This document shows, piece by piece, positions 2,402-42,969 of a stretch of 64,000 bases of DNA. The stretch's first letter is position 1. The number at the start of each line of letters is the position of its first letter. The position numbers were made by a program, and so were the translations under genes. Under the pieces are notes generated by a model that worked only from the letters and a program-made list of their open reading frames with translations, was not told where the DNA came from and searched no databases. Source of the DNA: Escherichia coli (GTDB lineage Bacteria; Pseudomonadota; Gammaproteobacteria; Enterobacterales; Enterobacteriaceae); NCBI RefSeq assembly GCF_044324785.1, contig NZ_CP172127.1; one strand, 5' to 3'.

Positions 2402-2574
2402 AAAGTTCTTTTGTGTTGCATTGCTGGCGTAAATGTCAGCAATGCAGCATTTCCTCACGATTCTCCTTTGACGATCGCACTTTTTGCTCGTTATGATGGC
2501 GTCGCTAGCCTCAGTAAATCCTTACTCCGGCGGTGCGCAACCTGTGCGCGTGAACCACTATCTGAATGCTCATC

Positions 2575-3545: not shown

Positions 3546-5261
3546 TTACTCCACTTCCTGCCAGTTTTTCCGCTTACTGGTTTTACCGATCCCCGGATTC
3601 ATACTGTTGGTCGGATCGTTCTCGCGATAAAACTTCTGCAACGTCTCCGGTGCTTTATACAAATGACCGACGTTATGCTCGGCAGGGTATTGCGCGCCGC
3701 GCTGCTGTAGCAGTTCCAGCATCTGTTCTTTCAACGCATGCACATCCACGCCTTTTTTAACGATGTAATCCTGATGGAAGACATAGCACATAAAATGGCC
3801 GTAATAGAGCTTGTGCACCAGTTGGCTGTCGATCTCCGGCGGTAAATGCTCATACCACTCGGTGTCGTTACGCCGCAGAGCGATATCCAGTGCCAGAATG
3901 TCTTCGACTTCATCGGAATGCACCGCCTGATAACGAATTGCTGCGCCCGCAGCGGCGAAACGGTGTAAAAACGCTTTGCTACCTTCCTCCGGCGTACAGA
4001 CAAAGAAATCGCCTTCGGCCTGTTTGAAATAATCCACCAGCCACGATTTGGCTTCACCGACGCCATCGCCCGCCATTTTTAACAGCAGATGATGTTCGTA
4101 TTTATCGCGCCAGTTTTTCATGCGCGGCGGTAAATGGCTGGGGAACAGGTGACCGAATTTTTGCATCGCACGGTCGGTAAAATGCGGACGGAAGAATTTC
4201 ACTTTCTCCAGCATCGCATCGGTGCGCCCCTTGAGATTAAAGAAGAACGGCATCTTGTCGGTGCCTAACTTATCAATCATCAGGAAGGTGTCTTTGCCGT
4301 ATTTTTCCGCAATATCGTAGATATCCCGGTGCATATATTCCCCGGCAACCGGCAGATTTTCGAAATTAGCCAGAATATGACGGCGGATTTCTGTCAGTAC
4401 TTCCGGCTGGTTGGTGCCGATATAAAACACCTGCTGATTTTTTTCCGCTTCGAAGGTATCAAGACGTACCGCAAAGACGGCCAGCTTCCCGGCGCAACCA
4501 GAAGATTCAAATAACCGATCCGGATCGGCGTTATAACGTGCGGGCGTGTCGGCTTCAATATCACGAACGCGGTGGACATAGTCATAATCGTGGGCGTGAC
4601 GACCATCGTGGCGCACATCGTCATCTTTGATGCGATCGTCATCCAGCTTGCTAAGGATCTGCTCCGGCGTTTCGCCCAGATCAATCCCCAGATGGTTCAC
4701 CAGCGTCAGTTTGCCGTCTTCATTTATACGCGCGAATAACGACATTTCGGTATACGCCGGGCCACGCTGCACCAGCGAGCCGCCGGAGTTGTTACAAATA
4801 CCGCCGATGACCGATGCGCCTATACACGATGATCCAATCACCGAGTGCGGTTCGCGTCCCAGCGGTTTGAGGGCTTTTTCCAGCGAATAAAGCGTGGTGC
4901 CCGGGTAGGCCAGCACCTGTTCGCCCTTGCCGAGAACGTGCAGCTTGTCGAGACGCAGGGTGCTGATGATCACGATATCGCGATCATAGTCGTTACCGTT
5001 TGGCGTCGATCCTTCGGTCAGGCCTGTATTGGCAGCCTGCATCAGAATAATTTTGTCGGCGGTGACGCAGGCTTTCAGCACCCGCCACAATTCCAGTAGT
5101 GAGCCAGGGAAAACGACAGCCAGCGCGTCGCCCTGACCAGAACGGAAGCCCTTGCGATAGCGGGCCGTTTTTGCGGGATCGGTGAGCAGGTGTGAATGAC
5201 CGACCAGACGGGCAAGTTCATTCAAAAAGGCTTTATTATCAGTTGTTGTCATGGAAGACAT
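3546..5261 (-). CDS. dld: FAD-dependent D-lactate dehydrogenase (membrane-associated)
   Basis: 571 aa from MSSMTTTDNKAFLNELARLVGHSHLL...; strong recollection of E. coli Dld sequence and length. Confidence 0.9.
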   Translation of the reverse strand: MSSMTTTDNKAFLNELARLVGHSHLLTDPAKTARYRKGFRSGQGDALAVVFPGSLLELWRVLKACVTADKIILMQAANTGLTEGSTPNGNDYDRDIVIISTLRLDKLHVLGKGEQVLAYPGTTLYSLEKALKPLGREPHSVIGSSCIGASVIGGICNNSGGSLVQRGPAYTEMSLFARINEDGKLTLVNHLGIDLGETPEQILSKLDDDRIKDDDVRHDGRHAHDYDYVHRVRDIEADTPARYNADPDRLFESSGCAGKLAVFAVRLDTFEAEKNQQVFYIGTNQPEVLTEIRRHILANFENLPVAGEYMHRDIYDIAEKYGKDTFLMIDKLGTDKMPFFFNLKGRTDAMLEKVKFFRPHFTDRAMQKFGHLFPSHLPPRMKNWRDKYEHHLLLKMAGDGVGEAKSWLVDYFKQAEGDFFVCTPEEGSKAFLHRFAAAGAAIRYQAVHSDEVEDILALDIALRRNDTEWYEHLPPEIDSQLVHKLYYGHFMCYVFHQDYIVKKGVDVHALKEQMLELLQQRGAQYPAEHNVGHLYKAPETLQKFYRENDPTNSMNPGIGKTSKRKNWQEVE

Positions 5262-10907: not shown

Positions 10908-11639
10908 ATGAAGATGTTGCGCGATCCGCTGTTCTGGCTCATTGCTTTGTTTGTGGCACTGATTTTCTGGCTGCCTTACAGCCAGCCGCTGTTTGCTGCC
11001 TTGTTCCCACAACTGCCACGACCCGTTTATCAGCAGGAAAGCTTTGCAGCTCTGGCACTGGCTCATTTCTGGCTGGTGGGAATTTCGAGTTTGTTTGCGG
11101 TGATCATTGGCACTGGTGCAGGAATTATTGTTACTCGCCCGTGGGGCGCGGAATTTCGCCCACTGGTGGAAACTATTGCCGCCGTTGGGCAGACTTTTCC
11201 GCCCGTCGCGGTGCTGGCGATTGCCGTTCCGGTGATTGGGTTTGGTCTGCAACCCGCGATTATCGCCTTGATCCTTTACGGTGTGCTGCCCGTCCTACAG
11301 GCGACACTTGCCGGGCTGGGAGCGATTGATGCCAGCGTGACAGAAGTTGCGAAAGGTATGGGAATGAGTCGAGGTCAGCGACTGCGTAAGGTCGAGCTAC
11401 CGCTGGCGGCTCCGGTGATTCTGGCGGGCGTGCGAACTTCGGTGATTATCAACATTGGTACGGCGACGATCGCCTCAACGGTAGGGGCCAGCACGCTGGG
11501 TATGCCCATCATCATCGGGCTTAGCGGATTTAATACCGCGTATGTGATCCAGGGGGCGTTACTGGTGGCACTGGCGGCGATCATTGCAGACCGCCTGTTT
11601 GAAAGGCTGGTGCAGGCGCTTAGCCAGCACGCAAAATAA
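10908..11639 (+). CDS. yehW: ABC transporter permease (osmoprotectant uptake)
   Basis: 243 aa membrane protein starting 4 nt after yehX stop. Confidence 0.85.
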
Positions 11640-11727
11640 AGGTATAACCTGCGAGCATGACGCCACCAATTCCGCCTAACGCCATAAACAGGAACAGGGC
11701 GATGACCCCAATTTTAGCTATGCGCAT
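11620..11727 (-). CDS. yohO: Small hydrophobic membrane peptide (35 aa)
   Basis: Hand-translated: [35 protein letters not shown]; ATG at 11727 preceded by AAGGAGTG; below ORF-track size cutoff; 3' end overlaps yehW 3' end by 20 nt (convergent). Confidence 0.6.
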
Positions 11728-11786
11728 AATGCACTCCTTATGTTAACGAAAGGATTGTACAGTAAAGCGCATTTGTTAACGAATCA

Positions 11787-12518
11787 TTAAATGCCGAGTG
11801 GGAAAATATCATGGCCTTGTTCCTGCCAACTGGTAAGTTGCTGCTGTTGGGCAGAGGTTCGATTTTCACCGCACCACACCAGCAATGTACGGCCTTCGAA
11901 CAGTTCAGGGCGTAGTTGATTGAGCGAGTGGGCGAGGACATCAATGCGCCATCCTTGTTGACTGGCAATCCAGCCCTCCAGCCACAGACGGGTGGTATCC
12001 TGAATATTCCAGCCAACTACCAGCGCATCTTTACCCTGTTTTTTACGCGCCGAAGCCAGACAAATGGCGATGTAGTTGATCAGTACGCCGTCGAGGATCG
12101 CCAGCAGCGCCTGGAGAGTCGGTTGTTGGCACTGAAGTCGTCGGCGCAGAGGAATAAACAGATGTGTGGTGAGCGTCTGGGCGGGGTAATCCTGACCGCG
12201 CTCTTTGATCCACGTTCGCAGGCTATGCAGATTGCCGCTTTGCAGGTAAGTCAGTAATGTTTCTTGCTGATCGCGCCAGCCGTTCTGCACATCAACATTT
12301 TCATTACTGAGCAGCATTTTAACTTTGCTAACCTGCACGCCGTTGTCGATCCAGCGTTTGATCTCGCGGATCCGGTCAATATCGGCATCATTGAACAGCC
12401 GATGACCGCCGTCTGTCCGTTGCGGTTTCAGCAATCCGTAACGCCTCTGCCACGCGCGTAACGTGACAGGGTTAATATCACAAAGCAACGCCACTTCACC
12501 AATTGTGTAAAGCGCCAT
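11787..12518 (-). CDS. mlrA: MerR-family transcriptional regulator (curli/csgD activator)
   Basis: 243 aa; N-terminal MerR HTH (YTIGEVALLCDINPVTLRAWQRRYGLLKPQRTDGGHRLF). Confidence 0.85.
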   Translation of the reverse strand: MALYTIGEVALLCDINPVTLRAWQRRYGLLKPQRTDGGHRLFNDADIDRIREIKRWIDNGVQVSKVKMLLSNENVDVQNGWRDQQETLLTYLQSGNLHSLRTWIKERGQDYPAQTLTTHLFIPLRRRLQCQQPTLQALLAILDGVLINYIAICLASARKKQGKDALVVGWNIQDTTRLWLEGWIASQQGWRIDVLAHSLNQLRPELFEGRTLLVWCGENRTSAQQQQLTSWQEQGHDIFPLGI

Positions 12519-12739
12519 CGTCTCACCCTTGCTCGCGAGGTCCCGGTTTAACTTTAGACGCAGTTTTGCGAACCAGGTAGTTTTGCCCGTTTTTTGTGCA
12601 TCTATAGGGTGATTTTATTTTTGCCAGGCGATTTTGAGTGATCGTACTCACGAATTCTCATTTTTCTGCAAGAGTTCAAAGAAAGTTAAACGCAGGCAAT
12701 GTATGTTACGCGTTTTAAAGGGAAGTGTGGTTTGCGGGT

Positions 12740-14425
12740 ATGTACGATTTTAATCTGGTGTTGCTGCTGCTTCAGCAGATGTGCGTTTTTTTAGTCATTG
12801 CGTGGTTAATGAGTAAAACGCCATTATTCATACCGTTAATGCAGGTCACGGTTCGTCTGCCGCATAAATTTCTCTGCTACATCGTCTTTTCCATCTTCTG
12901 CATCATGGGCACCTGGTTTGGGTTGCACATTGACGATTCTATTGCCAATACCCGTGCGATAGGCGCGGTAATGGGCGGCTTGCTCGGCGGTCCGGTCGTC
13001 GGTGGGCTGGTTGGTCTGACCGGCGGGTTACATCGATATTCGATGGGGGGCATGACCGCGCTAAGTTGCATGATCTCGACCATCGTTGAAGGATTGCTCG
13101 GCGGCCTGGTACACAGCATCCTGATTCGTCGCGGGCGCACTGATAAAGTCTTTAACCCCATTACCGCCGGTGCCGTCACGTTCGTCGCTGAAATGGTGCA
13201 AATGTTGATCATCCTGGCGATCGCCCGACCTTATGAAGATGCGGTGCGTCTGGTGAGTAATATTGCTGCGCCAATGATGGTCACCAATACCGTCGGCGCG
13301 GCGCTGTTTATGCGTATATTGCTCGATAAACGCGCGATGTTTGAAAAATACACTTCGGCTTTTTCTGCTACTGCGCTGAAAGTGGCTGCCTCGACGGAAG
13401 GCATTTTGCGCCAGGGGTTTAACGAAGTGAACAGCATGAAAGTGGCACAGGTGCTGTATCAGGAGCTGGATATTGGTGCAGTCGCGATTACCGATCGAGA
13501 GAAATTGCTGGCCTTTACCGGAATTGGTGACGACCACCATTTACCCGGCAAACCGATTTCTTCGACTTATACCTTAAAAGCAATTGAAACCGGTGAAGTG
13601 GTCTACGCTGATGGCAACGAAGTACCTTATCGTTGCTCTTTGCATCCGCAATGCAAACTGGGGTCGACGCTGGTAATTCCGTTGCGTGGCGAAAATCAGC
13701 GGGTGATGGGCACCATCAAATTGTATGAAGCCAAAAACCGTTTATTCAGTTCAATCAACCGCACGTTGGGTGAGGGGATTGCGCAACTGCTTTCGGCGCA
13801 GATCCTCGCCGGGCAATATGAGCGGCAAAAAGCGATGCTCACCCAGTCAGAGATCAAACTGCTTCACGCTCAGGTGAACCCCCATTTTTTGTTTAATGCG
13901 CTTAACACCATTAAAGCGGTGATCCGTCGCGACAGCGAACAGGCCAGCCAGCTGGTGCAGTATCTTTCCACTTTTTTCCGCAAAAACTTAAAGCGGCCTT
14001 CGGAGTTTGTTACTCTCGCCGACGAAATTGAACATGTGAACGCTTATCTGCAAATTGAAAAGGCGCGCTTCCAGTCGCGGTTGCAGGTCAACATTGCTAT
14101 TCCGCAAGAATTATCCCAGCAGCAATTGCCCGCGTTTACCCTGCAACCGATAGTGGAAAACGCTATTAAACATGGGACATCACAACTGCTCGATACAGGG
14201 CGAGTGGCAATCAGCGCCCGACGTGAGGGGCAACATTTGATGCTGGAGATCGAAGACAATGCCGGTTTGTATCAACCGGTAACCAATGCCAGTGGGCTGG
14301 GGATGAATCTGGTGGATAAGCGTTTACGTGAACGGTTTGGCGATGACTATGGGATAAGCGTCGCCTGTGAGCCTGATAGTTACACCCGAATAACGTTACG
14401 ACTACCATGGAGGGACGAGGCATGA
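12740..14425 (+). CDS. btsS: LytS-type sensor histidine kinase (pyruvate-responsive two-component sensor)
   Basis: 561 aa from [14 protein letters not shown]...; N-terminal multi-TM 5TM-Lyt region, GAF-like middle, C-terminal His-kinase/ATPase motifs. Confidence 0.85.
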
Positions 14426-22900: not shown

Positions 22901-22981
22901 AAAAAAACCTGCTGGTGAGGCAGGTTCTTTTATTTACTACAGTGACGCTAACTTGCTGATTGTGCAACATTTCGTACCAAC
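22901..22981 (-). ncRNA. orzO: OrzO-like antitoxin sRNA, copy 1 (~81 nt, boundaries inferred)
   Basis: Minus-strand TATAAT (22993-22988) 17 bp from palindromic TTGCAA (23011-23016); intrinsic terminator on minus strand (stem cctgc/gcagg 22908-22924 followed by U7 at 22907-22901); 5' 18 nt (22964-22981) complementary to zor 5'UTR 23132-23149 with one G-U. Confidence 0.5.
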
Positions 22982-23219: not shown

Positions 23220-23309
23220 ATGGACACGCTGACACAAAAGTTAACCGTGCTCATTGCTATACTGGAGCTATTAGTGGCTCTGTTACGGTTGATTGATTTG
23301 TTGAAGTAA
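23220..23309 (+). CDS. zorO: ZorO-like type I toxin, 29-aa hydrophobic peptide (copy 1)
   Basis: MDTLTQKLTVLIAILELLVALLRLIDLLK; AAGGAGA SD 7 nt upstream; TisB-like amphipathic helix; below ORF-track cutoff; which copy is zorO vs zorP not resolved. Confidence 0.7.
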   Translation: MDTLTQKLTVLIAILELLVALLRLIDLLK

Positions 23310-23508: not shown

Positions 23509-23589
23509 AAAAAAACCTGCTGGTGAGGCAGGTTCTTTTATTTACTACTTTGATGTTAAGTTACTGATAGTGCAACATGGCATCTCAAC
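23509..23589 (-). ncRNA. OrzP/OrzO-like antitoxin sRNA, copy 2 (boundaries inferred)
   Basis: Same architecture shifted by 608 bp; 5' pairing region differs from copy 1 at several positions and matches its own cis toxin UTR better. Confidence 0.45.
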
Positions 23590-23827: not shown

Positions 23828-23917
23828 ATGGACACGCTGACACAAAAGTTAACCGTGCTCATTGCTGTACTGGAGCTATTAGTGGCTCTGTTACGGTTGA
23901 TTGATTTGTTGAAGTAA
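23828..23917 (+). CDS. ZorO/ZorP-like type I toxin, 29-aa peptide (copy 2)
   Basis: MDTLTQKLTVLIAVLELLVALLRLIDLLK (I14V relative to copy 1); same SD. Confidence 0.7.
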   Translation: MDTLTQKLTVLIAVLELLVALLRLIDLLK

Positions 23918-42747: not shown

Positions 42748-42844
42748 TTTATTAACGCGATTGTAAAACTGCGGTTTTTACTCGTTTACAACGCGTGCGC
42801 TGGACATTACCATCCTCCTCTGCGATTTATCATCGCAACCAAAC

Positions 42845-42969
42845 GACTCGGGGTGCCCTTCTGCGTGAAGGCTGAGAAATACCCGTATCACCTGATCTGG
42901 ATAATGCCAGCGTAGGGAAGTCACGGACCACCAGGTCATTGCTTCTTCACGTTATGGCAGGAGCAAACT
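42845..42969 (+). promoter_or_regulatory. TPP (THI-box) riboswitch in thiM leader
   Basis: ggggtgcccttctgcgtgaaggctgagaaatacccgtatcacctgatctggataatgccagcgtagggaagtc matches the classic thiM aptamer including CUGAGA. Confidence 0.9.

Follow-up and report, generated by a model that had tools for sequence, protein, structure and literature searches.

The small gene yohO at the 3′ end of yehW in Escherichia coli: a conserved membrane microprotein gene with an upstream ArcA box

Introduction

A 35-codon open reading frame (ORF) lies on the minus strand of an Escherichia coli window (the whole 64-kb stretch of DNA that was analysed) and runs into the 3′ end of yehW, and it raises the question of whether such a short frame represents a gene and, if so, what its product might do. 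The first-pass annotation had described it as a yohO-like membrane peptide gene missed by the ORF track. The coding features of the locus are as follows.

11620..11727, minus strand: yohO coding sequence, 35 codons plus TAA, which codes for the single-helix membrane protein YohO (ORF reading, identity to K-12, NF010225 and conservation)
11734..11739, minus strand: Shine-Dalgarno sequence AAGGAG, 6 nt 5′ of the yohO ATG (read from the sequence)
10908..11639, plus strand: yehW, permease of the OsmF-YehYXW ABC transporter, convergent neighbour of yohO (ORF and RefSeq annotation)
11787..12518, minus strand: mlrA, which precedes yohO in the same orientation at a distance of 59 nt (ORF and RefSeq annotation)
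11620..11639, both strands: 20 nt shared by the convergent coding sequences of yohO and yehW and therefore dual-coded (read from the sequence; the same in K-12)

Results

Reading Frame and Start Signals

The frame begins with an ATG at 11727..11725 and ends with a TAA at 11622..11620 on the minus strand of the window. Together with the preceding T, its Shine-Dalgarno sequence (TAAGGAG) matches seven contiguous consensus bases, and the stretch AAGGAGTG, which had been singled out as the Shine-Dalgarno sequence on first reading, corresponds to 11739..11732. The encoded protein is very hydrophobic, with a GRAVY value of 1.58 and a mean Kyte-Doolittle hydropathy of 2.41 in its top 19-residue window (residues 8-26).

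A short ORF alone means little here and could be explained by chance, because 55 frames with 20 aa or more overlap the 3.5-kb stretch around yohO; the combination of features found in yohO is beyond chance. A filter that demanded an ATG with a properly spaced Shine-Dalgarno motif, a length of 25-50 codons and a hydrophobic stretch of 19 residues averaging 2.0 or more returned three matches in the 64-kb window and none in 30 Markov-simulated windows. The other two matches are ZorO toxin genes. The ATG, the near-consensus Shine-Dalgarno sequence and the 35 codons at 11620-11727 were all present as the first-pass annotation had described them, the single predicted transmembrane helix agreed with the hydropathy peak over residues 8-26 as well as with an AlphaFold helix at residues 3-33, and the last 20 nt that had been said to overlap the yehW stop region on the opposite strand amounted to exactly 20 shared nucleotides (11620..11639).

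Identity of the Gene and Published Evidence

It is virtually certain that the ORF is yohO (b4542) itself, which goes beyond the earlier label "yohO-like". The coding sequence is identical at the nucleotide level to that of b4542 in K-12 MG1655 (YP_588460.1, 2215657..2215764) and is itself unchanged within a surrounding 4.6 kb in which 94 positions differ from K-12 (approximately 2%). A 601-nt query around yohO was matched in 5423 of the 5426 complete E. coli genomes, at one place per genome, and the RefSeq feature under the match is "yohO: protein YohO", located between mlrA and yehW. At the protein level, YohO matches the YOHO_ECOLI / UPF0387 cluster exactly and aligns over its full length (residues 1-35 on profile positions 1-35 of 35) to the NCBIfam equivalog NF010225, "protein YohO", with 80.1 bits and E = 8.8e-23, the curated cut-off being 57 bits. 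No Pfam family was found for YohO, the sole match (B12D) being insignificant (E = 0.36). The order and strands of the genes (mlrA and yohO pointing one way, yehW the other) are as in K-12 and other RefSeq genomes. In comparison with YohO b4542 of K-12 (UPF0387; NF010225/PRK13681), the nucleotide sequence, the protein sequence, the position between mlrA and yehW, and the 20-nt overlap are all identical, so that no difference exists at the locus itself, although the window belongs to another E. coli strain.

The database comparison proposed on first reading has therefore turned a "yohO-like" gene into the annotated yohO, with an exact YOHO_ECOLI match and a score above the NF010225 cut-off. The gene is missing only from the length-filtered ORF list and is present in the genome annotation; its absence from the ORF track would follow from a length cut-off near 60 aa. 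What did not survive is the implied novelty of the 35-codon gene, since yohO is already annotated and experimentally supported.

According to the citing literature, this experimental support dates back to 2008. Ribosome profiling support and the tagged membrane protein of Hemm 2008 have been described for K-12 yohO in a citing paper, and the ribosome-occupancy check suggested in the first-pass annotation has accordingly been published, at least as relayed there, for the identical K-12 gene, together with its protein. It was also reported that YohO is detected by top-down mass spectrometry in a 2025 proteomics study (PMC12529367). yohO is a real gene that is translated and belongs to the core genes of E. 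coli and its relatives, and it is already known as such. In the literature searched, in which the primary reports of Hemm 2008 and 2010 and Fontaine 2011 are represented second-hand, no function has been assigned to YohO.

Conservation and Selection

Among 1.84 billion representative proteins, 17 matches to YohO were obtained, all of them YohO-type, and no relatives of any other type were detected; frameshifted or chimeric gene calls among the matches (P0016, P0019, P0026, P0031 and others) were left out of the alignments. A scan of one genome per species revealed YohO relatives in 159 species, and the loci of the best 80 of these 159, comprising Enterobacteriaceae (76 loci) and four Erwinia species, were analysed. 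An intact, ATG-started ORF of 34, 35 or 37 codons is found in all 80 loci of this best-80 set, and each of the alternative frames across yohO contains stops in many species.

The pattern of substitutions is that of a protein-coding gene under purifying selection. In 78 distinct nucleotide sequences, the variable columns at codon positions 1, 2 and 3 number 20, 11 and 30 of 33, respectively. The dN/dS ratio over codons 2-33 is 0.12; it is 0.13 when the yehW overlap is left out (codons 2-28) and 0.05 for residues 16-28, the span with the invariant 11-residue core, in estimates whose synonymous sites are near saturation (dS approximately 1.2). The invariant residues are M1, K5, G19, I20, G22, V23, M24, L25, G27, Y28 and I31, and the N-terminal half of the helix is variable. 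Constraint on YohO is strong and is concentrated on one glycine-rich stretch. The translation signals are preserved as well: the Shine-Dalgarno sequence is AAGGAG or CAGGAG in 74 of the 76 Enterobacteriaceae loci and a one-mismatch variant in the other two, and the spacer to the ATG is 6 nt in 74 of 76. Conservation of the reading frame, which had been named on first reading as a test of the gene, is borne out in the best 80 of the 159 species, where the frame is kept under purifying selection.

Overlap with yehW and Genomic Neighbourhood

The yehW stop codon TAA occupies 11637..11639, and the 20-nt overlap with yohO counts both stop codons. In this stretch, third codon positions of yohO lie opposite second positions of yehW, and third positions of yehW opposite second positions of yohO. 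The gene order, in which mlrA and yohO point the same way, btsS faces away from them and yohO converges on yehW and yehX (btsS <- mlrA -> yohO -> <- yehW <- yehX), is kept across Enterobacteriaceae; mlrA is missing in nine species, and the yohO-yehW overlap is still there. Of the 75 loci with yehW among the best 80 of the 159 species, 73 have yohO adjoining and overlapping it, and these 73 overlaps measure 20 nt for the 35-residue forms, 26 nt for the 37-residue forms and 17 nt for the one 34-residue form.

In the dual-coded stretch, the tail of YohO (ILRAG or IVRGGVG) is nearly fixed and that of YehW is free (LSQHAK, LTRHVK, RHRREQ and others); therefore, yohO is the constrained partner in the overlap. 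In Escherichia sp. MOD1-EC7003 (L005), osmF-yehYXW has been lost save for approximately 70 nt of the 3′ end of yehW, and yohO is intact. In four Erwinia species, the genes on either side of yohO encode a lipoprotein and an MFS transporter, and all of its E. coli neighbours are missing there. The persistence of yohO in L005 without yehW and in Erwinia indicates that the peptide is maintained independently of yehW, which speaks against a role through antisense transcription alone and equally against one as a dedicated transporter subunit.

With regard to transcription, yohO-yehW has been listed among the 165 convergent excludons that recur in 50% or more of the 58 RNA-seq data sets for MG1655 (ExcludonFinder, PMC12288877 Table 1). 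No terminator was found 3′ of yohO, either by a terminator scan or by folding of the 141 nt past the stop codon (z = -1.33), and this fits the reported overlap of its transcript with yehW. A terminator-like site at 11710..11695, inside the yohO coding sequence, is within the number expected by chance. Transcription of yohO would thus run antisense into yehW and may secondarily dampen osmF-yehYXW. With its entry in the excludome of E. coli MG1655 (PMC12288877), yohO-yehW belongs with the convergent excludons, but here the coding sequences themselves overlap, beyond the UTRs, and the overlap is kept across genera with the tail of the small gene constrained.

Promoter and ArcA Box

Three elements were located in the region between mlrA and yohO.

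11773..11790, plus strand: ArcA box ttgttaacgaatcattaa, over the -35 region of the predicted yohO promoter (ChIP tables and weight matrix)
11754..11759, minus strand: predicted -10 hexamer TACAAT of a promoter of yohO's own (conservation at a fixed distance)
11742..11747, minus strand: second GTTAAC element, 3′ of the -10 hexamer and 5′ of the Shine-Dalgarno sequence (NTTAAC at this place in 58 of 76 loci)

A TAnnnT hexamer (TATAAT, TACAAT, TATACT or TAGAAT) occurs at -32..-27 from the ATG in 75 of the 76 Enterobacteriaceae loci, the species that lack mlrA included. A generic promoter scan found no minus-strand promoter at yohO and did not report the -10 hexamer, the -35 match of the predicted promoter being poor in E. 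coli; a plus-strand match of the same scan at 11702..11730 is within the number expected by chance. In an alignment of the upstream region from 17 genera, TTAATG-N3-CATTAAC is followed by a variable spacer, an invariant TAnAnT, GTTAAC, AAGGAG and the ATG, and this arrangement persists without mlrA. As binders of the upstream palindrome, MlrA and Fur were considered and dropped, since by hand comparison the palindrome fitted their consensus sequences poorly; ArcA was confirmed by published ChIP tables.

The ArcA box overlaps the mlrA stop codon (11787..11789) and ends 13 nt 5′ of the -10 hexamer; it therefore covers the -35 region, which is the usual geometry of repression. The same box, ttgttaacgaatcattaa, is given for 'yohO' with 14.2 bits in Table S3 of Park et al. 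2013 (PMC3798270) and matches 11773..11790 exactly. In K-12, the "yohO" region lies under an ArcA ChIP-seq/ChIP-chip peak at the weaker end of the signal, with values of 2.5 and 1.9 (PMC3798270 Table S1). With a weight matrix derived from 114 published boxes other than this one, the E. coli yohO site scores 14.7, and a site at or above the 99th percentile of background windows is present in 70 of the 76 Enterobacteriaceae loci, 44 of the 70 having it at exactly -63..-46 from the ATG. No ArcA site was found by the weight matrix at the four Erwinia yohO loci. The second GTTAAC element lies 33 nt away from GTTAA in the ArcA box; it possibly represents another ArcA half-site or marks where the leader begins.

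In K-12, yohO was listed as a lowly expressed bound operon, at 7.17 log2 in the wild type and 7.77 in the arcA mutant, values too low to call regulation (PMC3798270 Table S8); the rise is in the direction expected for derepression, and the effect is small. In Shigella flexneri, yohO was reported to change by -2.96 log2 (approximately 8-fold) under anaerobic versus aerobic conditions with wild-type arcA, with no FNR-dependent value listed (PMC4229854), and the conserved ArcA box fits this anaerobic repression. A link between yohO and ArcA is absent from the main text of the papers searched and is reported in supplementary tables only. On this combination of binding, conservation and expression evidence, ArcA probably represses yohO. 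The gene would be transcribed from its own sigma-70-type promoter with a leader of approximately 20 nt and would be translated efficiently from the strong Shine-Dalgarno sequence; phosphorylated ArcA is proposed to occlude the promoter at low oxygen, which would make YohO mainly a protein of the aerobic state.

Structure and Possible Mode of Action of YohO

AlphaFold2, supplied with a 50-sequence alignment, predicts YohO as a single helix spanning residues 3-33 (pLDDT 90.6). Neither a sequence search nor a search with the 50-sequence profile found a PDB match. The TMHMM helix of YohO was given as residues 7-29, with a predicted N-in/C-out orientation (PMC10470546 Table S1). In the proposed topology, the protein would insert N-in/C-out, with R2 and K5 on the cytoplasmic side and Y28 at the periplasmic interface, and the invariant small-residue face G18/G19-x-G21/G22-x3-A26-G27-Y28 would sit in the outer-leaflet half of the helix.

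With 35 aa and one transmembrane helix, YohO falls within the size range of the small inner-membrane modulators (at most 50 residues, single helix). Like the small partners in AcrZ-AcrB, MgrB-PhoQ, MgtS-MgtA, CydX/CydH-cytochrome bd and KdpF-KdpABC, it has no more than 50 residues and one transmembrane helix, and it further shares with proteins of the AcrZ, MgrB, MgtS, CydX and KdpF types an inner-membrane location and a helix face that is conserved; its transcription is probably condition-specific, as theirs is. However, YohO has no sequence similarity to AcrZ, MgrB, MgtS, CydX/CydH or KdpF, so that the likeness concerns a possible working mode and not a family; in addition, CydX and KdpF are encoded in an operon with their partner, whereas YohO is in no operon with a candidate partner. 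By analogy with AcrZ, MgrB, MgtS and CydX, the glycine face might pack on a helix of a larger inner-membrane protein and modulate that protein. That YohO is such a partner-binding modulator is put forward tentatively, with a little short of an even chance, and its glycine-rich face fits homo-oligomerisation equally well.

Discussion

Taken as a whole, the explanation preferred here is very probable: yohO is a core gene that encodes a membrane microprotein of one helix, probably repressed by ArcA, with a predicted N-in/C-out insertion, a tentative partner-binding role and a proposed antisense read-through into yehW. Four other explanations were weighed against it. A chance ORF with a fortuitous Shine-Dalgarno-like motif would be no gene at all; the abundance of short frames (55 of at least 20 aa over 3.5 kb) is what such a reading could appeal to, but it is refuted by the conservation of the frame and the published detection of the protein, as well as by selection and annotation, and it is practically out of the question. 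A second reading takes the RNA as the functional product, with transcription of yohO antisense into yehW lowering osmF-yehYXW and the ORF being incidental. The excludon listing in at least 50% of the 58 MG1655 RNA-seq data sets (PMC12288877), the lack of a terminator after yohO in the scans made, and the conservation of the coding overlap in 73 loci are all in keeping with this, yet purifying selection acts outside the overlap (dN/dS 0.13 for codons 2-28), it is the YohO tail and not the YehW tail that is conserved within it, intact yohO occurs without yehW in Escherichia sp. L005 and the four Erwinia species, and the protein itself has been detected in published work, in part as relayed by citing papers. 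A purely RNA-based role is very improbable; an antisense effect of yohO on yehW may exist as a secondary role. YohO could instead be an accessory subunit devoted to the OsmF-YehYXW ABC transporter, like KdpF in KdpFABC, given that yohO overlaps yehW in 73 of 75 yehW-bearing loci and that their adjacency outlasts the loss of mlrA in nine species. This is unlikely, however: the two genes are convergent and not co-transcribed, and the excludon layout predicts mutually exclusive expression; yohO has its own ArcA-bound predicted promoter and remains intact where the operon is deleted (L005) and beside unrelated genes in Erwinia; and a gene order shared inside a single family is only a weak sign that functions are coupled.

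YohO might also act by itself, assembling through a glycine zipper into a homo-oligomer that perturbs the membrane or forms pores and would depolarise or permeabilise the inner membrane in the manner of a type I toxin. The invariant GGxGGxxxAG face would suit this reading, a face of this type resembling glycine-zipper packing motifs. Like the type I toxins (ZorO in the window, as well as Hok, Ldr and TisB), yohO is short, encodes a very hydrophobic product, has a strong Shine-Dalgarno sequence and passes the same filter as zorO; unlike them, it has no described antitoxin sRNA and is a single-copy core gene under purifying selection. The patchy, multi-copy distribution of toxin loci is not seen for yohO, which occupies one place per genome (5423 of 5426 genomes) with synteny fixed across genera. 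In an Rfam scan at gathering thresholds, no antitoxin sRNA family was found over yohO, even though OrzO antitoxins were found elsewhere in the window, at 22.9-23.6 kb. Toxin mRNAs have translationally locked leaders, whereas yohO has a predicted short leader and a strong, exposed Shine-Dalgarno sequence. Several Hok toxins are RseP substrates, but HA-MBP-YohO was not cleaved in the RseP substrate screen (PMC10470546). The ASKA yohO clone induced with IPTG gave a D-alanine release halo in round 1 of a screen (PMC10299036), which would be compatible with permeabilisation, but it was gone from the second round, and the same halo was given by 65 of 392 membrane-protein clones and is therefore unspecific, such halos being attributed in part to lysis or leakage from membrane-protein overexpression (PMC10299036). 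A self-acting homo-oligomer is accordingly improbable.

As for what the partner-binding microprotein might mean for the cell, YohO could be a microprotein of oxygen status: repressed by ArcA and present aerobically, it would dock by its invariant glycine face on a particular inner-membrane complex, and its unterminated transcript would, through antisense interference, tie oxygen status to the expression of osmF-yehYXW. This more specific proposal is doubtful, and neither such an oxygen-status regulatory logic nor a partner of YohO is described in the main text of the papers searched.

More generally, the flagged 35-codon ORF is a true positive of sequence reading and a false negative of length-filtered ORF lists, and YohO joins the many E. 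coli microproteins that are conserved and have no assigned function. Several handles on it are offered by the locus, namely the invariant 11-residue helix face for mutation, the conserved ArcA operator, which predicts aerobic-specific expression, and the upkeep of the peptide independent of the overlapping yehW. What is added here is a quantified cross-genus test of the yohO reading frame, the observation that YohO and not YehW is constrained in the overlap and that yohO persists without yehW, and the cross-genus conservation of an ArcA operator previously found in supplementary tables only. Candidate complexes for the docking of YohO include an aerobic respiratory or transport complex, the neighbouring BtsS sensor and the YehW/YehY permease.

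The ArcA Box and the Predicted Promoter Region of yohO

Two elements upstream of yohO, the gene of a 35-codon membrane protein, lie on either side of its predicted -10 hexamer:

11773..11790, plus strand: ArcA box, sharing bases with the mlrA stop codon (11787..11789)
11742..11747, minus strand: second GTTAAC, downstream of the -10 hexamer and ahead of the Shine-Dalgarno sequence of yohO

Because the box lies over the mlrA stop codon, bound ArcA might in addition hinder mlrA read-through into yohO. In a published table of ArcA-bound, lowly expressed operons, ypdA and yhjX are listed along with yohO (PMC3798270). These two genes come from the sister pyruvate-sensing system of btsSR, which neighbours the yohO region.

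In the Citrobacter freundii group (loci L013-L015, L017-L021, and L024-L027; upstream of position 4001), the ArcA box is located 8 bp nearer the -10 hexamer (-55 versus -63) and has a higher score, reaching 20.9; the promoter geometry of yohO therefore varies between genera. The second GTTAAC and the GTTAA within the ArcA box are 33 nt, or three helical turns, apart, and NTTAAC occupies the place of the second GTTAAC in 58 of the 76 Enterobacteriaceae loci compared.

A segment of 237 nt (11586..11822) that spans yohO, its promoter, and the 3′ end of mlrA has no differences from K-12, whereas the 4.6 kb around it contain 94 mismatches (approximately 2% of positions). The zero divergence of this segment may reflect either chance or local constraint.

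yohO Loci in Other Species

In Escherichia sp. MOD1-EC7003 (L005, 4100..4400 of the locus), the transporter operon osmF-yehYXW has been deleted, leaving approximately 70 nt of the 3′ end of yehW joined to the sequence that precedes a 787-aa ORF, possibly bglX; mlrA and yohO are both intact. In four Erwinia loci (L030, L043, L047, and L082; approximately 3990..4110), a YohO homologue of 34 aa with the C-terminus ...IVRS is encoded with a lipoprotein-like gene on one side and an MFS transporter gene on the other. A -10-like hexamer, TATACT, is present upstream and GTG directly precedes the ATG, while the ArcA box is absent from these four loci and a Shine-Dalgarno sequence is not obvious in them.

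A btsS-mlrA-yohO-yehW region of the enterobacterial type was also found in a record entitled Chryseobacterium sp. 18061 (L079), in which the yohO protein and the 80 nt upstream are identical to those of Citrobacter sp. 18056 (L077). This record probably bears a wrong label or contains contaminating sequence.

Other Elements in the Window

Two tandem copies of the zorO-orzO type I toxin-antitoxin system are present in the window, as well as two other RNA elements matched in Rfam:

23220..23309 and 23828..23917, plus strand: zorO-type ORFs of 29 codons, hydrophobic, with a strong Shine-Dalgarno sequence
22901..22974 and 23509..23582, minus strand: OrzO-P antitoxin RNAs (Rfam, 91.7 and 88.8 bits)
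2490..2570, plus strand: Peptidase-S11 RNA leader motif (RF03039, 73.1 bits)
42839..42935, plus strand: TPP riboswitch (RF00059, 71.2 bits)

The sequence common to both zorO-type ORFs is MDTLTQKLTVLIA[I/V]LELLVALLRLIDLLK. The zorO-orzO locus is not known to occur in K-12.

For btsS (12725..14425, plus strand), the mechanical ORF starting from GTG encodes 566 aa, compared with 1686 nt (561 aa) in RefSeq, a trivial discrepancy of start-codon choice.
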